The position numbers and the translations under genes were made by a program. Below are positions 274-31,446 of a stretch of DNA of 64,000 nt, one piece after another. Position 1 is the first letter of the stretch. Each line of letters begins with the position of its first letter. The stretch is from a virus. A model generated the notes under the pieces. The model saw only the letters and a program-made list of their open reading frames with translations, had not been told where the DNA came from and ran no database searches. The stretch lies in the IMG/VR virus record IMGVR_UViG_3300021335_000004. One strand, given 5' to 3'.

Positions 274-442
274 TTCCGCTTTTTACGAAAAAAAGACATT
301 CACAACGCATTTTTTGCTTTACTTTACTGAAAAAGTGTTGTATAACTATATATATCAAATGAGAAAGAGCGTTAAGAAAGGCCATGTGGCTAGTCCTGAA
401 AATGGAAACCTCATTTCTACCAACCATATAAGGATGTTAAAT

Positions 443-751
443 ATGGAAAAGAAAAATGTAAATTATACTGTTGAGATGACTGCTAAAGCGGTTGACCTTT
501 ATCAAGAGGGTGCGACTGTTGACCAGATTGCTGATGCTATCGGTAAATCTGTTCGTTCGGTTCGCTCAAAGCTGGTTCGTGAAGGTGTGTATGTAGCGCA
601 ACCAAAACCAGCTTCAGCAAAGAAAGCTGATGAGCCTACGAAAAAAGAGCTGATGATTCAGCTTGAGGAAGTGGTTCCATTTCCTACTGATGGTCTGATG
701 GGTGCGACTAAAGCCTGTCTGATGGCTATCTTGTCTCATTACGAGCAATAA
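443..751 (+). CDS. T5 A2-like pre-early DNA-binding protein, paralogue 1
   Basis: HTH-like segment IADAIGKSVRSVRSKLVREGVY; SVRSKL recalls T5 A2. Likely start ATG 443 after AGGA; the ORF track extends to 251. Confidence 0.6.
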   Translation: MEKKNVNYTVEMTAKAVDLYQEGATVDQIADAIGKSVRSVRSKLVREGVYVAQPKPASAKKADEPTKKELMIQLEEVVPFPTDGLMGATKACLMAILSHYEQ

Positions 752-3084: not shown

Positions 3085-3396
3085 ATGTCTGAAAAAAATG
3101 TAAACTACACACCTGAAATGACTGCTAAAGCAATCGACCTCTACCAAGAGGGTGTTTCAATTGACGAAATCGCAGATGCGATCAATAAGACTGTTCGCTC
3201 TGTTCGTTCAAAACTCGTTCGCGAGGGTGTATATGTCGCCCAACCAAAAGCGACTGCTCGTAAATCTGACGAGCCAACTAAGAAAGAGATGCTTCGCGAT
3301 TTAGAAGATGCTCTGCCTAACGACTTTCCTATCACTGGCATGATGGGTGCAACTAAGGAAGCAATTGTTGCTTTGATGGGTGTCATCAAACAATAA
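3085..3396 (+). CDS. T5 A2-like protein, paralogue 2
   Basis: Near-identical motif VRSVRSKLVREGVYVAQPK. Confidence 0.6.
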   Translation: MSEKNVNYTPEMTAKAIDLYQEGVSIDEIADAINKTVRSVRSKLVREGVYVAQPKATARKSDEPTKKEMLRDLEDALPNDFPITGMMGATKEAIVALMGVIKQ

Positions 3397-5232: not shown

Positions 5233-5541
5233 ATGGCTGATACACAAAAGGCAGTAAACTATACTGCAGAAATGACTGCTGCGATTGTTGAGCAGTACCA
5301 GAACGGCGTAGAGATTGATGAGATCGCTGCGTCTATTGAAAAGAGCGTGCGTTCTGTACGTTCGAAACTCGTCCGTGAGGGCGTGTATGTAGCGCAACCT
5401 AAAGTCGCTGCGCGTAAGCAAGATGGTCCTACGAAGAAGGAACTCTTGCGCGATCTCGAAGCTACTGGCTTCGACGTAGTAGGCTTTGAAGGTGCTACTA
5501 AAGATGCACTTGTGCGTCTGATGGGCGTAGTAGCCCAATAA
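5233..5541 (+). CDS. T5 A2-like protein, paralogue 3
   Basis: KSVRSVRSKLVREGVYVAQPK; ATG 5233 after AAGGAG. Confidence 0.6.
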   Translation: MADTQKAVNYTAEMTAAIVEQYQNGVEIDEIAASIEKSVRSVRSKLVREGVYVAQPKVAARKQDGPTKKELLRDLEATGFDVVGFEGATKDALVRLMGVVAQ

Positions 5542-6472: not shown

Positions 6473-7894
6473 ATGAGTAAAAGATTAGTTGTTGAAAAAA
6501 GTGGAAATGCTGCCCTAGTTCTTTCAAATGGAGAACTACAGTGGGACTATGTCACTAATAGATTACGAGTACACGACGGATATACTGCCGGTGGCCGTTC
6601 GTCAATTCAAATGTACTCAAGCGGATTTAGCTACGTCTTTCCTACTCCTGTTTCATCAACACCTACAATTACATGGTCTGGTACGGTTACAGAAACTATT
6701 CTATATGCAGACTCTCCAGAATCAAATGGTTATTTTGGTTCATGGGCATCTATTTCAGGTGATGGAGACTATGTCGCAATCGGCGCATACGGTCAAGGAT
6801 CTTATGGTAATGCCTATATCTTTAACTATTCAGGAAGTAGCTGGTCACAACAAGCAAAACTACAACAATCAGATACTGGAGTAGGTGATGCGTTTGGTAA
6901 ACGTCTTGATATTTCGAAAGATGCTTTATACGTAATTGTCGGAAACTCAGAAGACGAAACTGAGACTTCTGGGTTCAACTATAATAACTTAGATTATGGA
7001 GCTGCGTACATCTTTTTAAGAACTGGATCGTCATGGGCGCAACAAGCAAAACTTACTCCCTCAGATAGAGCCCAACAAGATAAATTTGGTTCATCAGTGA
7101 GTCTTTCAGATGATGGAACTTACGCACTTGTTGGTGCTTATAAGAAATACGTTGGTTCAGATACGTATGTAGGTGCTGCATACATCTTTTTAAGAACTGG
7201 GACGTCATGGGCGCAACAAGCTAAGATAACAGCTTCAGATGCACAAGCAGTTGATCAATTTGGTTGGTCAAGTGCAATTTCAGGAGACGGACTTTATGCT
7301 ATTGTAGGTGCGATTGGCGAAGACACTGGCGGATCGAATTCTGGAGCAGCCTACATCTATTTAAGAACAGGCACTTCATGGGCTCAACAAGCTAAAATTC
7401 AATCAGGAGGATCTGGAGCTAACTTTGGTTACAGCGTGGATATTTCAGGAGATGGACTTTATGCTGTTATAGGTGCCACACAAGCAGAAAGCACAGCAGG
7501 TGCTGCTTATGTATATTTAAGAACAGGAACAAGCTGGGCATTACAAAGTACTTTAACAGCCTCTGATGGTGTGTCTAGTGATCAGCTTGGACTAGGTGTG
7601 GCGATAAGTCATGATGGCAAGTTTGTTACTGTTACTACACGTTTAGAAGATGGCGGTGACGGTGATCCTTTAGCTAATGCTGGTGCAGCGTATGTGTTTG
7701 AAAGAGATGATACAACTTGGACGGAAGTAAAAAAGATAACAGCATCTGACGCACAAGCCAATGATCAATTTGGTGGTTATGGAGTCTCAATGAACGCAGA
7801 CGGTTCTAAAATGGTTACAGGTGCTTGGCAAGAAGATGGTGGTTCAGGTGACCCAAACAGTGGTGCAGGTGCTGCATACATTTATGAAGTATAA
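6473..7894 (+). CDS. FG-GAP repeat beta-propeller protein with tail-anchor-like N-terminus
   Basis: Seven repeats of FGxSVxISGDG…GAAYIF…W.QQAKL; N-terminal GEL…NRLRVHDG.TAGG (Mtd_N-like). Confidence 0.85.
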   Translation: MSKRLVVEKSGNAALVLSNGELQWDYVTNRLRVHDGYTAGGRSSIQMYSSGFSYVFPTPVSSTPTITWSGTVTETILYADSPESNGYFGSWASISGDGDYVAIGAYGQGSYGNAYIFNYSGSSWSQQAKLQQSDTGVGDAFGKRLDISKDALYVIVGNSEDETETSGFNYNNLDYGAAYIFLRTGSSWAQQAKLTPSDRAQQDKFGSSVSLSDDGTYALVGAYKKYVGSDTYVGAAYIFLRTGTSWAQQAKITASDAQAVDQFGWSSAISGDGLYAIVGAIGEDTGGSNSGAAYIYLRTGTSWAQQAKIQSGGSGANFGYSVDISGDGLYAVIGATQAESTAGAAYVYLRTGTSWALQSTLTASDGVSSDQLGLGVAISHDGKFVTVTTRLEDGGDGDPLANAGAAYVFERDDTTWTEVKKITASDAQANDQFGGYGVSMNADGSKMVTGAWQEDGGSGDPNSGAGAAYIYEV

Positions 7895-7905: not shown

Positions 7906-9063
7906 ATGCCAAAAATTAAAGTATTACGTGGAAACACTTCATCACTCGCAAACTATGCTGGACAATCTGGGGAGATTGCCCTTAACTCAGACACAGGCAA
8001 TATTTATTTCTGGACAAATACTGCAAACGTTTTTTATACTTTTGCAGGAGTACCTGCTGCTCCTGCTGGTGATAGTCCTTTTCAGGGTAGTACTTCTGGG
8101 TATATAATTGGAGGCGTTAGTGCTTATCCACTGTTAAGTGGTAGTAACCAAATACAGAAGTTTGGATTTAGTTCTGGAAGTCCAGCATCTGGAATTGGCA
8201 GTATGGCTGGGCAAGTAGTAGCAGCTGGAGGAGCTTCTTCTGATACGAATGGATATGTTCAAGGAGGTTTTAGAACTAATCCTTATGGTAGCTATAACGC
8301 TAATATAGATAGACATCCTTTTTCTTCAGATTCAAATGGGTCTTTTGTACAAACTTTAGATCCTAGTCCTACAATGCCTTCACCAACGGTAAATCAACAA
8401 CATATGACAGGTTTTCAGTCTTTAAGTACAGGATATGCGTATTGGGGTAGAGGTTCGGGTGAGATAAAAATGCCTTTTTCTTCTGATACTGATGCAGCTA
8501 CCTTTACAGATGATATGGCTAGACAGTATACTCCTAGCCCACTTCAAATAACTTCAACCATGTTATCCGCAGGTGCTACTTCTACTCAAAATAGGTACAA
8601 AGCTGGAGGCTATCAACCAAACACACCTTTTGCAGGATATTTTGGAATACTGAGAAATCCTTTCTCATCAGACGCCTCTATAATTGTTGGAGGATTAACG
8701 TGGCCAGGTTATTATGCGAGTGGTGTATCTGGAGAAACAGCAGGTTATGCAGTGGGTGGAGCGCCTGCGTATAACAACAGCGCGTCAACTCCAAACCCTG
8801 CTTTACAAGAACATGACAACATTCAAAAGTTCTTATTTGCTTCAGACACAGATGCTACTGACGTAGGACAATTGGCACAAACAAGACAACAAGCGACAGG
8901 ATTTTCTAGTACAACTGATGGTTACGTAGCAGGAGGGGTTGTAAGACCTGCAAACACTGCCAAAGATGAGATATACAAATTCCCATTTTCATCTGAATCT
9001 ACTGTTTCCGATCAAGCTGAAATGGTAATAGCTAGATGGTCGATTTCATCAACACAAGTATAA
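7906..9063 (+). CDS. Kelch-like repeat virion/receptor-binding protein
   Basis: Repeats of GYxxGG…IxKFPFSSD; N-terminal GEIALNSDTG anchor. Confidence 0.75.
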   Translation: MPKIKVLRGNTSSLANYAGQSGEIALNSDTGNIYFWTNTANVFYTFAGVPAAPAGDSPFQGSTSGYIIGGVSAYPLLSGSNQIQKFGFSSGSPASGIGSMAGQVVAAGGASSDTNGYVQGGFRTNPYGSYNANIDRHPFSSDSNGSFVQTLDPSPTMPSPTVNQQHMTGFQSLSTGYAYWGRGSGEIKMPFSSDTDAATFTDDMARQYTPSPLQITSTMLSAGATSTQNRYKAGGYQPNTPFAGYFGILRNPFSSDASIIVGGLTWPGYYASGVSGETAGYAVGGAPAYNNSASTPNPALQEHDNIQKFLFASDTDATDVGQLAQTRQQATGFSSTTDGYVAGGVVRPANTAKDEIYKFPFSSESTVSDQAEMVIARWSISSTQV

Positions 9064-9094
9064 ATACAACACCACTTATAAGAGGACATAAGAA

Positions 9095-10495
9095 ATGGCA
9101 GTAATTAAATGGGCAAGAGCCGCTTCATATAATAAAGCAAATACATATCCAGGCGCTAATGGTGAAATAGTGATTGATATAGAGCAGAACCGTCTATTTT
9201 TATATGATGGTGCAAATGCTTATGTCAGTAACACTTTTTTTCAGTCTAATGTTTACATTTCTAGCGGAGCTGCCTCGTTTGACTGGACTAACACTCCTAC
9301 AGAAAGCGTTATACGTGCATCAGATGGACAGGCATCTGATACTTTTGGCTCTGTTTGCCGACTAAGTAAAGATGGTCAATATGCTATTGTTGGTACAACT
9401 GAAGAAGATGGAGGTGCAGGTGACCCAATATCTGGTGCTGGTGCTGCTTATGTCTATGTCAGATCTGGTTCTACTTGGACTCAACAAGCTAAATTAACTG
9501 CATCTGATGCGGCATCAAATGATAAATTTGGTATAGATGTATCAATAAGTCAAGACGGAACTTATGCTGTTGTTGGTTCTCAGTATGGGGGTACAGGATC
9601 TGGAAATGATAATCATGGTGCTGTCTACATTTTTGTAAGATCAGGCACTTCTTGGTCCCAACAACAAAAATTAACGGCGTCAGATGCTTATGAAGGTGCT
9701 CAATTTGGGTATAATGTTGATCTAAATGCTGATGGTTCATATGTTGCAATTAGTGCGCCATATGATACACTAAACAACTTAGGGGCAGTATATGTTTTCA
9801 CAAGATCTGGTTCTACGTGGTCACAACAACAAAAATTAACAGCTTCTAATGCTGGATCAGGTGACGGACTTGGTTTTAGCTGTAGAATTAGTGATGATGG
9901 TGATTATATTGTCGCTTGCGCACCATATGAAGATACAACTGCATCAGATGTGGGTATGGCATATATCTTTACCAGGTCAGGCTCTAGCTGGTCACAACAA
10001 GCCAATTTCCAACATTCAGATGCTCAACTTGAAGATAGACTAGGTTTTGGGACGGATATAAGCGGTGACGGAAACTACGCTATTTGTGGTTCTACTTGGG
10101 AAGATGGTGGGGCAGGCGATCCATTAGACAGAGCTGGTGCTGCTTATGTCTTTTTAAGATCAGGCACTTCGTGGGCACAACAGGCTAAACTAACAGCGTC
10201 AGATGCAAGTTCACCTGCTTCATTTGGGTATCAAGTTTCTATTAGTACTGATGGAACATATGCTCTTGTTGGTACAACCTACAACTATCCTGCTACGGCT
10301 TACCTCTATAAAAGAACTGGAACTTCTTGGTCAGAAGTTAAAAAGTTTACTGAAGGCACAACCGGTAATTCAGGTGATAAATTTGGTTTTGCAGTAGATC
10401 TTAGTGGTGATGGTCAGTTTGCTATTGTAACGGCAATTAATGATAGCACGAATGGTAGTGGTTCTGGAGCAGCTTATATCTACGAAGCAACTTAA
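9095..10495 (+). CDS. FG-GAP repeat beta-propeller protein, paralogue
   Basis: Seven FG…GAAYV repeats; N-terminal GANGEIVID…RLFLYDG anchor. Confidence 0.85.
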   Translation: MAVIKWARAASYNKANTYPGANGEIVIDIEQNRLFLYDGANAYVSNTFFQSNVYISSGAASFDWTNTPTESVIRASDGQASDTFGSVCRLSKDGQYAIVGTTEEDGGAGDPISGAGAAYVYVRSGSTWTQQAKLTASDAASNDKFGIDVSISQDGTYAVVGSQYGGTGSGNDNHGAVYIFVRSGTSWSQQQKLTASDAYEGAQFGYNVDLNADGSYVAISAPYDTLNNLGAVYVFTRSGSTWSQQQKLTASNAGSGDGLGFSCRISDDGDYIVACAPYEDTTASDVGMAYIFTRSGSSWSQQANFQHSDAQLEDRLGFGTDISGDGNYAICGSTWEDGGAGDPLDRAGAAYVFLRSGTSWAQQAKLTASDASSPASFGYQVSISTDGTYALVGTTYNYPATAYLYKRTGTSWSEVKKFTEGTTGNSGDKFGFAVDLSGDGQFAIVTAINDSTNGSGSGAAYIYEAT

Positions 10496-16386: not shown

Positions 16387-16457
16387 TAGTATCTCCTTAT
16401 CATCCTTAAGTTCTCAATATAGTAATATACTATCAAAAATTAAAGTAAGATGCAAGA

Positions 16458-28036: not shown

Positions 28037-28282
28037 CTAAGAATTTGCGGATTCTAGAAGGGAATGTAGTGCGACTACGCGATTCGCAGGCGAGATATCA
28101 TAAATCTGACCTAATGGCTCGTTTAATGATACATGCTTCTTGACGATTCTTTGATGCTTGCAGGGCTTGCGATAGGAAGGACAGTTACAGTAACTGCTGA
28201 TATGATAGACAGCGAGAGGTTTGCTATCCTCTCCCCAAGAAGATACTTCGTACCCAGAATTTGCGCGTCTAACTAAATACAT
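28037..28282 (-). CDS. SWIM zinc-finger protein
   Basis: CNCP…PCKH. Confidence 0.7.
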   Translation of the reverse strand: MYLVRRANSGYEVSSWGEDSKPLAVYHISSYCNCPSYRKPCKHQRIVKKHVSLNEPLGQIYDISPANRVVALHSLLESANS

Positions 28283-28294
28283 TTATTACTCCGT

Positions 28295-28390
28295 TAAGGT
28301 GAGGAGACGGAATTCTGCCAGGACTCCAGTTTTTCAAGTGATTTTGAGTTGGCGTTGAGATCCGCAGATTGTGCGTCTCCTCAATTTGTT
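28295..28390 (-). ncRNA. structured RNA unit A (ncRNA, or leader of the SWIM gene)
   Basis: Promoter TTGCTA-17-TAATAT at 28425-28397; 10-bp terminal stem TGAGGAGACG/CGTCTCCTCA. Confidence 0.55.
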
Positions 28391-28454
28391 AATTATATAT
28401 TACCAAAAATTCGAGAGACTAGCAAGTGTAATTTTGCCTAAATTTATATTTTAC

Positions 28455-28812
28455 TAAAAAGCAAAAGGGCGCAACACTAGGTTACGCCCAATTACTTCTA
28501 GAAACCTGGTTGCCCAATCTTCTAGAGTTCTCCTTTGTTGTTCGCTATCTTTCGCCCGAATCTAATTCAGCGGCTTGGCCTCACACAAGGGATAGCTTAC
28601 CTAATTTTAAATATTAAACCAGCACCCGCCCGCCGTTTAACCGTTTACACCAACACAAGTACTAGTGATATACAGGTGGATGAAGTCCGTACATCTCATG
28701 TATTGCCCCCCCATGTAAACTAACCTGAATGGGGTGTAGTCGCGAGGCCGAAACCTCCACTACGTCTCCCCCTCGCAGAAGAGCTATGAGAAGAGCGACT
28801 TCTCAATCTTTA
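28455..28812 (-). ncRNA. structured ncRNA unit B (~350 nt)
   Basis: Promoter TTGCTT-17-TAATAT at 28847-28819; several hairpins; terminator GGGCGTAAC…GTTGCGCCC-TTTT; no sense ORF in the track. Confidence 0.65.
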
Positions 28813-28854
28813 TAACTTATATTAGCATAAAAAGATACACTAAGCAAGTATAAA

Positions 28855-29597
28855 GTTAACTTATCTACTCCGACCCTTTCGTTTGTTACATAAACTACTC
28901 AATCGCAGTTAGCCTACATAGATAAGTAGTGACCACCACCAACCTCGTCAGTCACCTTTGAGGCAGCATACACGCTGTTGTTCCTCCCCGACTTACAGAT
29001 TGCTTCCTGTAACCAGAACCCCCTGATCATGCTTTACAGCCAACGGCGGGGACTAAGTAAAGTCGAAGTTCGAAAACAAGACAACTTAGTGCGTCAAAGA
29101 AGAGTTATCTAGAATAGGCTACTTCTTTGCGGAAGGTTTTTTTAAGTAGGTTATCCTTACCGAAACTACTCAGAAAGAGGAGAGCGATTAAACTAAGGTC
29201 CGTCTATGACTGGACTACCTGCTCTTTCTTATATAACTGCCTGGCGGCTCTAATTGCTCTTACCTAAGTAATCAGACCAGGACTTTTCCAGCTGCCAGAA
29301 ACTTAATTCATGTTCAGCGCTTCGAAGCGAGGTATTAACGCCCCTCTTAGAATTTCAACCCTACCCCTATAGGTAAAATCTATCTTGGCGCCTAGCTTTT
29401 TGGTTTTGACGTGAACCCAACCTAGAGGGAACGGTACAAGGAGTATTTATAGACCGCCTCCAAGTCAGGGCGGAGAGAGAAAGGATGAAGGGCGGTTCCG
29501 TCCCTTCCGTTGCATCATTAACCGAATTTATCTTGCGCAGTTCAACCTGTAAAACAACCTGATTTTGCTCGGAGGATGATCCCCTTCTCAATCTTTA
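28855..29597 (-). ncRNA. structured ncRNA unit C (~740 nt)
   Basis: Promoter TTGCTA-17-TATAAT at 29632-29604; many stems, two pseudoknots; GC-richer than the coding DNA. Confidence 0.65.
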
Positions 29598-29639
29598 TAA
29601 CTTATTATAGAATATTTTTAATCATTTAGCAAATATAAA

Positions 29640-29798
29640 ATCACGGGCGAGAGTAGTTTCTGTACTAGCGAAGAGTGTTTTTGAATAGTGCCTAGTGTCA
29701 TTACACATCATGGGCTTGTCTTGCGTTCCCTACTCGTAGCACTCGCCCCTTGACTTTACAAAAGGTTTTTTTGAAGAAGGTTATCCTTAAAACTTCTA
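29640..29798 (-). ncRNA. structured ncRNA unit D (~160 nt) starting with a pseudoknot
   Basis: Promoter TTGCTT-17-TATTAT at 29832-29804; GGGCGAG/CTCGCCC and GAGTAG/CTACTC stems. Confidence 0.65.
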
Positions 29799-29834
29799 TA
29801 AACATAATATAATAAATTTTAGCATTAAGCAATA

Positions 29835-30072
29835 AAAAAGTGGTGGGGAGAATCACGCGTCTCCCCAAGTTTTCAAATTCGAGCGCAAGCGTATACTGGA
29901 CTAGTCCACCTCTACTCAATGAAAAACTTATACGCGGTGAAAGTGTCGTTTTCACAATACGCTGTGCCTATCGTATGGCACAAGCACGATTGATTTTAGC
30001 TTAGAGCTAGGTACTAACAAACCTAACGTCGCGAGCTCAGTGAGTTGCAGCTAGATTTATCGCTCAATCAAT
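29835..30072 (-). ncRNA. structured ncRNA unit E (~240 nt)
   Basis: Promoter TTGCTT-17-TATTAT at 30107-30079; multibranch stems; 3' hairpin GGGGAGA/TCTCCCC-ACCA-C-T6. Confidence 0.65.
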
Positions 30073-30139
30073 AAATATATAATATAAGAAATTTAACGAT
30101 TAAGCAAACTAAAAATTGTTTTAAGTTTAGTATTTGGTT

Positions 30140-30844
30140 TTATTTTTCATATATAGTTAGTACCTCTTTGACAACAGGATGTCTTTCAATATCTTCATGT
30201 TTAAATTCTAAATACTTAATATAGTCTGTAGCACCATGATGAACTAAACAATCCATAAAATGAGCTAATCCGTTTTCTTCATATCCATTATCATGCTGAT
30301 CTAAATCTCCTGTAAGTATAAATTTAGAGCCTTCTCCTAACCTAGTTAGTAACATTTTTACTTGTTCACGTGTTGCGTTCTGCATTTCGTCTGCAATAAC
30401 CCAAGAGTGTTTAAAGGTACGCCCTCGCATATAAGCAAGAGGAGCAACTTCTATTTTTTCTTCTTTCATAAAGTATTCAAGTTGTTGAGGAGAAAAATAT
30501 GTTTTAAGTATATCAGTAATAGGTTTCATCCAAGGATCCATTTTTTCAAGTATATCGCCTGGTAAGTAACCATGTTCTTCATCTACTGATACTGCTGGAC
30601 GAGTTATTACTATTCGATCAAAATGTCTATCTTGAAACTCTTCTGCACCTTTAGATACTGCAAGTAGTGTTTTTCCTGTACCGCTTGGGCCTGTTGCTAT
30701 AATTATATGAGTGTGTATATCATTCATTAACCTTAAATAGTAGTTCTGTCTTTCATTTTTTGGCTCAATAGTAACTTTCTTACTTGGTCTAATTGTTGCT
30801 AAATCATTATCAACTAACTTAAATTGTGTAGTTTTTCTCGGCAT
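30140..30844 (-). CDS. phoH: PhoH-family ATPase
   Basis: GPSGTGKT, ITRPAV, GYLPG, AYMRGRTF, DEMQN, TGDLDQ. Confidence 0.95.
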   Translation of the reverse strand: MPRKTTQFKLVDNDLATIRPSKKVTIEPKNERQNYYLRLMNDIHTHIIIATGPSGTGKTLLAVSKGAEEFQDRHFDRIVITRPAVSVDEEHGYLPGDILEKMDPWMKPITDILKTYFSPQQLEYFMKEEKIEVAPLAYMRGRTFKHSWVIADEMQNATREQVKMLLTRLGEGSKFILTGDLDQHDNGYEENGLAHFMDCLVHHGATDYIKYLEFKHEDIERHPVVKEVLTIYEK

Positions 30845-30948
30845 AAATTTCTCCTTTGAGTTAAAAAAATAGAGGTCATCGAGACCTCTATCAATTACTA
30901 ATTTTAGTAATTTCTTCATATTTTTTCTATCTTTTTTTGAGGCTATAC

Positions 30949-31446
30949 TCATTCACCAGCTCTTAAATAGTTTAAAACACTAGTAGCGGTTGAAACTTCA
31001 AAAGGTTCTTCTGATGGGTTGTCTTCTTTTCCTTTCTCAATAAAAGTTTTTTCAATATTCATTCCTTTGGTAATAATAGCATATCTCCAAGAACGGTATC
31101 CATATCCTTTACTAGACTTATCTACTAACATGCCCATTTGACGAGTAAAATCTGCATTACCATCTGGTAACATTTTAATATTCTTAATGCCTAACTCTTT
31201 TGCCCATGCGTTCATTACATGAGAATCATTAACAGATAAACAAAACACATTGTCAATACCGTGTGCTTTAATATCTTCGTATAATAAATCAAATTGTGGT
31301 AAATGAGTAGAAGAACAAGTAGGTGTATACGCACCAGGAACTGCAAACAAAATATTCCTACCTATAAAGTAGTTTTCTGTAGCAGCCTCTATCCATTCTC
31401 CATTTTCTCTAATTTTGAAGATTGTGTTCGGAAGTTTAGTTATCAT
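30949..31446 (-). CDS. peroxiredoxin (Prx5-type)
   Basis: VPGAYTPTCSSTHLP, SVND..VM.AW, DGN..FT, RSWRY. Confidence 0.95.
   Translation of the reverse strand: MITKLPNTIFKIRENGEWIEAATENYFIGRNILFAVPGAYTPTCSSTHLPQFDLLYEDIKAHGIDNVFCLSVNDSHVMNAWAKELGIKNIKMLPDGNADFTRQMGMLVDKSSKGYGYRSWRYAIITKGMNIEKTFIEKGKEDNPSEEPFEVSTATSVLNYLRAGE

Follow-up and report, generated by a model that had tools for sequence, protein, structure and literature searches.

Probable structured RNA genes downstream of phoH in a phage genome, built from modules shared with related phages

The locus and its interpretation

What does a phage encode in 1.8 kb of DNA that hold no credible open reading frame (ORF)? The question is raised by positions 28290 to 30110 of a 64,000-nucleotide stretch from an uncultured marine phage, IMG/VR virus record IMGVR_UViG_3300021335_000004 (in the following, the window), which adjoin a gene for a PhoH-like ATPase (30140-30952) and which an earlier note had described as five separately promoted, structured non-coding RNAs, here called units A to E. 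The core of this description is borne out by conservation in related phages and by covariation within the predicted helices. Four amendments have to be made: unit E has the appearance of a leader for the ORF behind it, unit C probably consists of two domains, one lineage lacks the promoter of unit D, and one of the quoted stems is specific to a lineage. That the stretch carries functional structured RNA genes is, judged from the sequence comparisons, highly probable. For the overall explanation, a cluster of non-coding RNA genes including its mode of action, we estimate a probability of about 0.6; this figure is lower since it also covers the mode of action, which is a proposal.

Units A, B and D each combine an own promoter, an intrinsic terminator and a conserved structure with the lack of an ORF, as is expected of free-standing small RNA genes. 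The covariation called for by the earlier note was examined among the homologues, and compensatory changes preserve helices in each of the units A to D. Shuffled and slid alignments served as controls; none of 500 shuffles reached the observed covariation in unit A, in unit B, in the 3' domain of unit C or in the small three-way-junction RNA that forms the 3' half of unit D (in the following, the junction RNA). Folding z-scores of the single sequences are only modest (A -2.3, B -0.9, D -2.8 and E -3.8), and the support for structure therefore comes from the comparison with relatives and not from folding energy. G-U pairs are frequent on the minus strand, with one pair of unit B being G-U in 16 of the 17 sequences, which indicates that the structured molecule is the minus-strand RNA and not a DNA structure. 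Every unit begins with a 5' end that is folded into a helix, as in stable RNAs. The lengths of insertions and deletions among the relatives do not keep to multiples of three, and peripheral hairpins are exchanged as a whole; complete ORFs are inserted between the units and leave the units themselves undisturbed. By these comparisons the stretch is conserved as RNA and not as protein, and its modules are shuffled between phage lineages and combined differently.

Promoters, coding capacity and relatives

The pattern TTGCTW-N17-TAWWAT has seven matches in the window against 0.50 expected, a number reached in none of 100 shuffles. Five of them lie on the minus strand at 30107, 29832, 29632, 28847 and 28425, exactly where the earlier note had placed its promoters. 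The two matches outside the cluster drive ordinary protein genes, so the motif is regarded as the general sigma-70-type promoter of the phage. The promoters of A, B, C and E as well as the terminators of A and D are conserved in relatives. ATTGAG indeed follows four of the five promoters. Outside the cluster, a promoter-like site at 16413-16455 (minus strand) consists of TTGCAT, a 17-nt spacer and TAGTAT, again followed by ATTGAG.

The absence of a credible ORF between 28290 and 30110 is likewise confirmed: the longest overlapping ORF has 84 codons for amino acids (aa), each frame contains 31-53 stops, and no frame of more than 215 codons opens in this interval under single or double stop-codon reassignment. 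No reading frame of the stretch ends in AA, LA, VA or AV before a stop, as a tag-type frame would. ARAGORN found neither a tRNA nor a tmRNA inside the stretch; the nine tRNAs of the window all lie outside. At the gathering score, the stretch matches no family in the proposed covariance-model search of Rfam 15, which covered GOLLD, ROOL, HEARO, OLE, raiA, IMES, 6S, RNase P, tmRNA, SRP, 5S, riboswitches and ribozymes. With E-values of up to 10 allowed, the sole match in the 2.4-kb region is an unrelated human long non-coding RNA, and over the whole window only tRNAs elsewhere and noise were returned.

The stretch is richer in GC than the window, as had been stated (0.418 versus 0.351). The stems quoted in the earlier note are all present. 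Compensatory changes in relatives maintain TGTGCC/GGCACA, CAAAGAAG/CTTCTTTG, ACTAAGT/ACTTAGT and GGTGAC/GTCAC; GCGTATA/TATACGC is not conserved and is, by this comparison, lineage-specific. Two repeats were correctly located and had to be reassigned to other units: the identical 21-mers at 28800-28820 and 29585-29605 belong to C and D and not to B and C, and GGAGACG at 29864, 28769 and 28380 recurs in A, D and E and not in A, B and E.

The same arrangement is found downstream of phoH in three further lineages (L003/L050/L061, L004/L065 and L057/L059), where the stretch shows 72-78% nucleotide identity, the same level as the coding DNA of phoH. The comparison also included a fragment that is 98.7% identical to the window (L002) and two related records, one of 173.5 kb rated 100% complete (G002) and one of 107 kb rated 91% complete (G003). 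Units A, C and E and the 5' domain of unit D are carried by three to four independent lineages only. No isolate phage is close, the nearest PhoH of an isolate having 45% identity. In a blastn search of the stretch and one family member against 50,697 isolate phage genomes the cores remained unmatched, and only a common terminator was hit. Covariance models were used for unit B (R1) and for the junction RNA (R2); run over about 0.9 Mb of collected loci they revealed no additional divergent copies.

The features of the stretch are as follows.
30079..30107, minus strand: promoter of unit A (TTGCTT-17-TATTAT), conserved including the spacer in all relatives
29834..30072, minus strand: unit A RNA of about 237 nt, 5' end closed in a helix; from pair counts and terminator scan
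29804..29832, minus strand: promoter of unit B; pattern match, conserved in relatives
29762..29797, minus strand: predicted pseudoknot 1 (H-type), with which unit B begins; covariation in 17 sequences
29636..29761, minus strand: unit B body; from the pair counts of alignment A9 and R1 scores
29604..29632, minus strand: promoter of unit C; pattern match, conserved in relatives
29171..29597, minus strand: 5' domain of unit C; consensus folding (alifold) on part of it, block deletions and a hairpin swap in relatives
29131..29170, minus strand: predicted H-type pseudoknot 2 inside unit C; covarying stems S1 and S2, 44 bits with R1
28850..29130, minus strand: 3' domain of unit C; several hairpins with conserved loops and a weak terminator-like end
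28819..28847, minus strand: promoter of unit D; pattern match, not conserved in the L003 lineage
28606..28812, minus strand: 5' domain of unit D; conserved blocks, compensatory changes judged by eye
28455..28605, minus strand: junction RNA, the 3' half of unit D; covariation in 20 sequences, 88.5 bits with R2
28397..28425, minus strand: promoter of unit E; pattern match, conserved in relatives
28296..28390, minus strand: unit E leader, closed by a 9-bp stem just before the ribosome-binding site (RBS) of the ORF 28282-28037

Unit B and its pseudoknot

Judged by its alignment, unit B is a discrete RNA family of about 165 nt with 17 distinct sequences, found in the close lineages and in at least five more distant groups of marine viral or metagenome contigs; R1 gives 131-183 bits on family members. 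Alignment A9 contains 37 pairs that are 96.6% paired, 20 of them with compensatory changes; its covariation is 0.363 compared to 0.137 after shuffling, and the slid controls do not exceed 0.10.

The 5' end is predicted to form an H-type pseudoknot with stems S1 (29797-29793/29779-29775) and S2 (29788-29785/29765-29762) and the loops L1 (UUUU), L2 (AUAAC) and L3 (UC plus seven A). Among the 17 sequences S1 is 100% paired with four of its five pairs covarying, and S2 is 94% paired with two of four. The divergent copies show that what looks like the conserved loop of a hairpin pairs with an upstream 5-mer and so creates the pseudoknot; six different pairs of complementary sequences serve as S1 and several as S2. 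A kissing interaction of the AACCU "hairpin loop" with a GAGGUUGG loop was considered and dropped, since that loop is strand S1 of the pseudoknot. The idea that the pseudoknot loop mimics the 3' end of 16S ribosomal RNA (rRNA) was rejected as well; the resemblance is one of low complexity, and the anti-Shine-Dalgarno core is not kept.

The body of unit B consists of a long-range helix around an internal loop of two-fold symmetry, both strands of which carry AGUA...GAA, and of two small hairpins; the U run at its end directly adjoins the next promoter. In the lineage of the window, 11 consecutive bases of the loop are identical to Escherichia coli 5S rRNA (rrfB) beside loop E. Within the family only AGUA and GAA are invariant, and the 11-mer is not kept in other members. 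By inference, the internal loop may be a motif of the loop-E or bulged-G type. The likeness to the bacterial loop E/sarcin-ricin motif of 5S rRNA is local, and unit B has neither a 5S fold nor a 5S match in Rfam.

A pattern of the B core was found in nine viral contigs, with fewer than four expected by our estimate, and in none of 185,579 prokaryote genomes. A scan with a pseudoknot pattern brought two further lineages of unit B. A separate 16-nt pattern matched 22 stretches of viral contigs, which is about chance level by our estimate and includes only one new locus with extended similarity.

Several observations were made beside the family itself. In all contigs of the distant group the unit B RNA is followed by a gene for a 105-aa protein behind an own promoter and a conserved leader (L055:11812-12129, minus strand). 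This protein has weak PHROG matches to DNA-binding and regulator families, and three paralogues with 46-64% identity are encoded on the plus strand of the window (434-739, 3088-3396 and 5242-5541). In one contig (L076:790-870, plus strand) a tRNA-like sequence appears right after the terminator of unit B; ARAGORN calls no tRNA there, and it may be truncated or atypical. Possible remote pseudoknots occur in L068 (2681-2705, APMI01003512.1), L067, L072 and L052, none of which has a recognisable unit B body. The S1 of L068 is fully complementary (GGCAG/CUGCU); R1 gives 17-22 bits for L067, L068 and L072 and no match for L052, and all four could be due to chance.

The junction RNA of unit D

The second compact family is the junction RNA, whose members have a length of 118-146 nt. 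From 5' to 3' it is predicted to contain UAGGU, the helix P1, a variable hairpin P2 and the hairpin P3, which is nearly invariant, has UAG as its loop and contains one covarying pair (C-G/U-A); then follow an A-rich strand that is invariant and has AAAGGAGAA at its end, a second variable hairpin (P4) and a GC-rich terminator (28489-28467) with a U run. In 20 sequences the 14 pairs of P1 and P3 are 95.6% paired and six are compensatory. The covariation is 0.315, that of shuffled alignments 0.170, and slid controls stay at or below 0.068.

The invariant strand (28542-28528) contains AAC-AAC-AAA-GGAG and is identical to the RBS of a phage gene in the window. It is predicted to be unpaired (0.71 compared to 0.41 for the whole junction RNA). 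Across the members no start codon was found at a consistent position behind it.

A degenerate pattern of 21 bases for the core has matches in 25 viral contigs, with fewer than 0.1 expected by our estimate, and none in the 185,579 prokaryote genomes; in isolate phage genomes the RNA is absent at the sensitivity of blastn. Its surroundings differ. In T4-like contigs it lies immediately after gp32, at the 3' end of this gene and facing a convergent gene, and in L112 and L114 it is located between tRNA-Leu and tRNA-Gly. In the distant group a larger RNA begins with it and runs on into the pseudoknot and the unit B body. In the two tRNA-operon members (L112:3560-3640, minus strand; L114:4995-5075, plus strand) the hairpin and the terminator are replaced by another conserved 3' part of about 85 nt that extends to tRNA-Gly. 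A search of the L114 member against Rfam returned only the tRNAs and one weak match to an unrelated long non-coding RNA.

Units A, C and E

Unit A was found by motif scan in the close lineages only. The alignment of seven sequences has 54 pairs with 94.8% of the cells paired and 11 compensatory pairs; covariation amounts to 0.208 compared to 0.114 in shuffled alignments, with slid controls of at most 0.063. According to the terminator scan the unit ends in a hairpin at 29867-29844 followed by a U run.

The 5' end of unit C pairs with a pyrimidine tract, and its 5' domain contains a swappable peripheral hairpin as well as a conserved 16-mer core that is also present in the distant group. Consensus folding of the 5' domain was confined to 29300-29598 and gave 71 pairs, eight of them compensatory, in five sequences. 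Two blocks of this domain are missing in the L003 lineage. Pseudoknot 2 (S1 29170-29166/29149-29145; S2 29161-29155/29136-29131) has the architecture of pseudoknot 1 with different, covarying sequences in both stems. In the 3' domain six sequences share 51 pairs, 94.1% paired and 21 compensatory, and the covariation of 0.465 compares to 0.249 for shuffled and at most 0.146 for slid alignments.

Two domains probably make up unit C, because in L057 (3304-4011, plus strand), as also in L059, an inserted ORF of 235 aa separates the 5' domain from pseudoknot 2, and because in the distant group the 5' core is joined to, and precedes, a pseudoknot and the unit B body. An RNase P-like reading of unit C, based on a GGAAAAGUCC-type motif, was rejected; the partner strand lies about 60 nt away and makes a plain hairpin, and Rfam gives no match.

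A further observation concerns the peripheral hairpin of the 5' domain. In L002 (7385-7420, corresponding to 29565-29525 on the minus strand of the window) it is wholly different and identical to that of L057. Since L002 is 98.7% identical to the window overall and shares this hairpin with the far more distant L057, recombination between lineages within the RNA is suggested.

Unit E is the best-conserved piece of the stretch with a mean column identity of 86% and a minimum free energy of -30.2 kcal/mol; the motif scan found it in close lineages only. The 9-bp stem closes the unit just before an RBS, and in L004 and L065 a different ORF stands behind it. From these two features unit E looks less like a free RNA than like a cis-acting 5' leader of the ORF that follows. 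In the window this ORF (28037-28282, minus strand) codes for 81 aa with a CxC...CxH pattern reminiscent of a small zinc finger, and has no match in Pfam or PHROG.

Alternative explanations

The resemblance of the pseudoknots to a riboswitch deserves the closest look. In preQ1 riboswitches of class I, types II and III, the hallmarks are UU atop the 5' strand of P1, an AC or UC step before the 3' strand of P1 and an A-rich L3, and they include three ligand-contacting positions (PMC11625349). The pseudoknots described here could thus be ligand-sensing aptamers related to preQ1-I, for preQ1, preQ0 or another small purine-like compound, with the long helix and the U run of unit B serving as expression platform for read-through. 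The fold agrees: it is a pseudoknot of the H-type whose P1 has 5 bp and whose short P2 is formed with the 3' tail, and it shares with the preQ1-I aptamer (RF00522, about 36-40 nt) the UU after the P1 5' strand, the AC before the P1 3' strand and the A-rich L3. These positions are invariant in the 17 distinct unit B sequences and in the other members; all pseudoknot members have UU, then (A)UAAC, then one or two bases and a run of at least four, usually six or seven, A. In unit B the pseudoknot is moreover followed by a terminator-like helix and a U run. However, the Rfam model PreQ1 (RF00522) matches neither the 2.4 kb nor pieces of 81-91 nt at E-values of up to 10. With 4-7 bp, P2 is longer, and its two strands have changed places, the purine strand lying in the loop and CCUU in the tail; with this reversed polarity no Shine-Dalgarno sequence can be hidden. 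Instead of preceding a gene, the phage pseudoknots open a non-coding RNA or lie inside one: unit B is followed by another promoter and not by an ORF, and pseudoknot 2 lies within unit C. The unit B body is conserved far beyond the needs of a mere terminator, and an A-rich L3 is common in unrelated H-type pseudoknots too. Genes for TGT/DpdA, QueC or PTPS/QueD were found neither in G002 (173.5 kb, 100% complete) nor in G003 (91%) nor in G001. Since the Rfam match, the gene-linked platform and the genes for queuosine or 7-deazaguanine all fail, the pseudoknots are not filed as members of preQ1-I, and we regard a relation to these aptamers as unlikely.

According to a second alternative, the whole stretch would be a multi-promoter cis-regulatory leader, made of attenuators and stabilisers, for downstream early genes including the ORF 28282-28037. 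All units are oriented like the downstream genes, and unit E is as leader-like as this explanation expects. Read-through transcripts are likely, since unit C has no strong terminator and one lineage lacks the unit D promoter. On the other hand, A and D end in strong, conserved terminators that are each followed by a fresh promoter, and elsewhere the modules have no gene behind them that they could regulate, as at the gp32 3' end and between two tRNAs. Whole ORFs have also been inserted between units that stay conserved. Taken for the stretch as a whole, this explanation appears slightly less probable still than the riboswitch relation.

Two other explanations are effectively excluded. The hairpins could act as DNA, in a replication origin, a packaging site or a protein-binding array, with the promoter-like motifs being incidental; the region is indeed gene-free, contains repeats and is rich in inverted repeats. 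Yet only the minus strand tolerates the G-U pairs, which are A-C mismatches on the other strand; covariation extends to a pseudoknot and to long-range helices that span more than 100 nt; the units lie between promoters and terminators; and a turn of the GC skew was looked for at the site and not found. Protein coding, be it by a recoded gene, by small peptides or by a decaying pseudogene, has nothing more than small ORFs of up to 84 aa in its favour, against six frames that are dense in stops under every stop reassignment, frame-breaking insertions and deletions, substitutions that track helix pairing and not codon positions, and the lack of a suppressor tRNA among the nine tRNAs.

Possible mode of action

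A cluster of non-coding RNA genes is thus the explanation that we prefer. Each gene would be transcribed from its own sigma-70-type promoter, presumably by the host RNA polymerase. The free-standing RNAs A to D would accumulate early in infection, would be stable because their 5' ends are closed in helices and, encoding nothing, would act in trans by binding proteins or ribosomes. The junction RNA might present its A-rich, Shine-Dalgarno-like strand to the 30S subunit or to a chaperone or regulator such as Hfq or CsrA, and the loop-E-like and pseudoknot modules of B and C might dock other proteins, so that the cluster together would re-tune host translation and RNA metabolism in favour of the phage. 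This mechanism is the likeliest that we can offer, and it is held with low confidence. As a possible function the earlier note had suggested decoys, sponges or antitoxin mimics, which the host polymerase would express early.

The units are assembled from reusable modules. One is the H-type pseudoknot, in which S1 has 5 bp, L1 starts with UU, L2 ends in AC and L3 is rich in A; the others are the body of unit B and its double AGUA/GAA loop, the three-way junction followed by an exposed copy of the phage's RBS and no ORF, and several hairpins with invariant loops. A more far-reaching version is that the junction RNA is a "message without a gene", whose exposed RBS captures the 30S subunit or a factor reading it, while the preQ1-like pseudoknots make B and C respond to a purine-like metabolite, which would amount to a ligand-tuned takeover of host translation; this combination we consider quite improbable. 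Within this version, the cluster might also be functionally tied to the long-unexplained phoH, which is located directly upstream in the close lineages.

Several points weigh against an RNA gene cluster acting in this manner. Start sites, ends, abundance and timing are deduced from sequence alone. The folding energy of unit B is not unusual (see its z-score above), and the structures of A, C, E and the 5' domain of D were predicted on the same alignments that were used for the pair counts. The RBS-like strand may just as well serve as a seed that pairs with mRNAs or form pairs with the 5' part of unit D. Pseudoknot 1 directly before a terminator-like helix also resembles a transcriptional riboswitch.

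Comparison with known RNAs

Phage structured RNAs of unexplained role are an old puzzle, to which T4 RNA C and RNA D, GOLLD and ROOL belong, and only few families are defined well enough to be tested. The tRNA gene cluster of phage T4 encodes the stable RNAs species 1 and 2 (RNA C and RNA D), whose function is unexplained. Likened by description only, they are small non-tRNA phage RNAs as is the junction RNA, some members of which lie inside a tRNA operon; the junction RNA of the window differs by its own promoter and terminator context away from tRNAs and by its RBS-like strand. GOLLD and ROOL (RF01998 and RF03087), which are often found near tRNAs, are large, ornate and phage-borne with variable peripheral hairpins, similar to unit C with its approximately 750 nt. 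In contrast to these RNAs, whose models give no match at E-values of up to 10, the present locus is made of smaller, promoter-bounded units of shuffled modules and not of one giant RNA. Protein-sponge and Hfq class II small RNAs (of the CsrB/RsmZ and ChiX types) extend from promoter to terminator and carry single-stranded A-rich, (AAN)n or GGA strands and a U-rich 3' tail. The junction RNA is predicted to expose a single such strand per molecule and has no repeated array of GGA hairpins.

The two compact families of about 140 and 165 nt are, among the collections searched, confined to phages; they show strong covariation and are absent from Rfam. A perfectly conserved RBS with nothing to translate leads to a testable prediction, the capture of ribosomes or of a chaperone. 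The preQ1-I-like pseudoknot outside a riboswitch context bears on the reuse of this fold, and structural RNA modules appear to be shuffled between the transcripts of related phages much like protein domains. The constant position beside phoH in the close lineages gives a new handle on a widespread gene of marine phages. A catalogue of 10,006 candidate viral structured RNAs has been published (PMC10690425), in which unit B or the junction family may already figure as an unnamed entry with no assigned function. A literature search on phoH and structured RNAs of marine phages yielded nothing relevant.

Neighbouring genes

Apart from phoH, genes for a peroxiredoxin and for tail fibres are located near the stretch. 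The L004 lineage, which includes L065, has additional coding-looking insertions between phoH and unit A (6810-7040) and between unit E and the 81-aa ORF (9000-9470), as well as an extra block of about 190 nt at the start of unit D; the RNA units are untouched.

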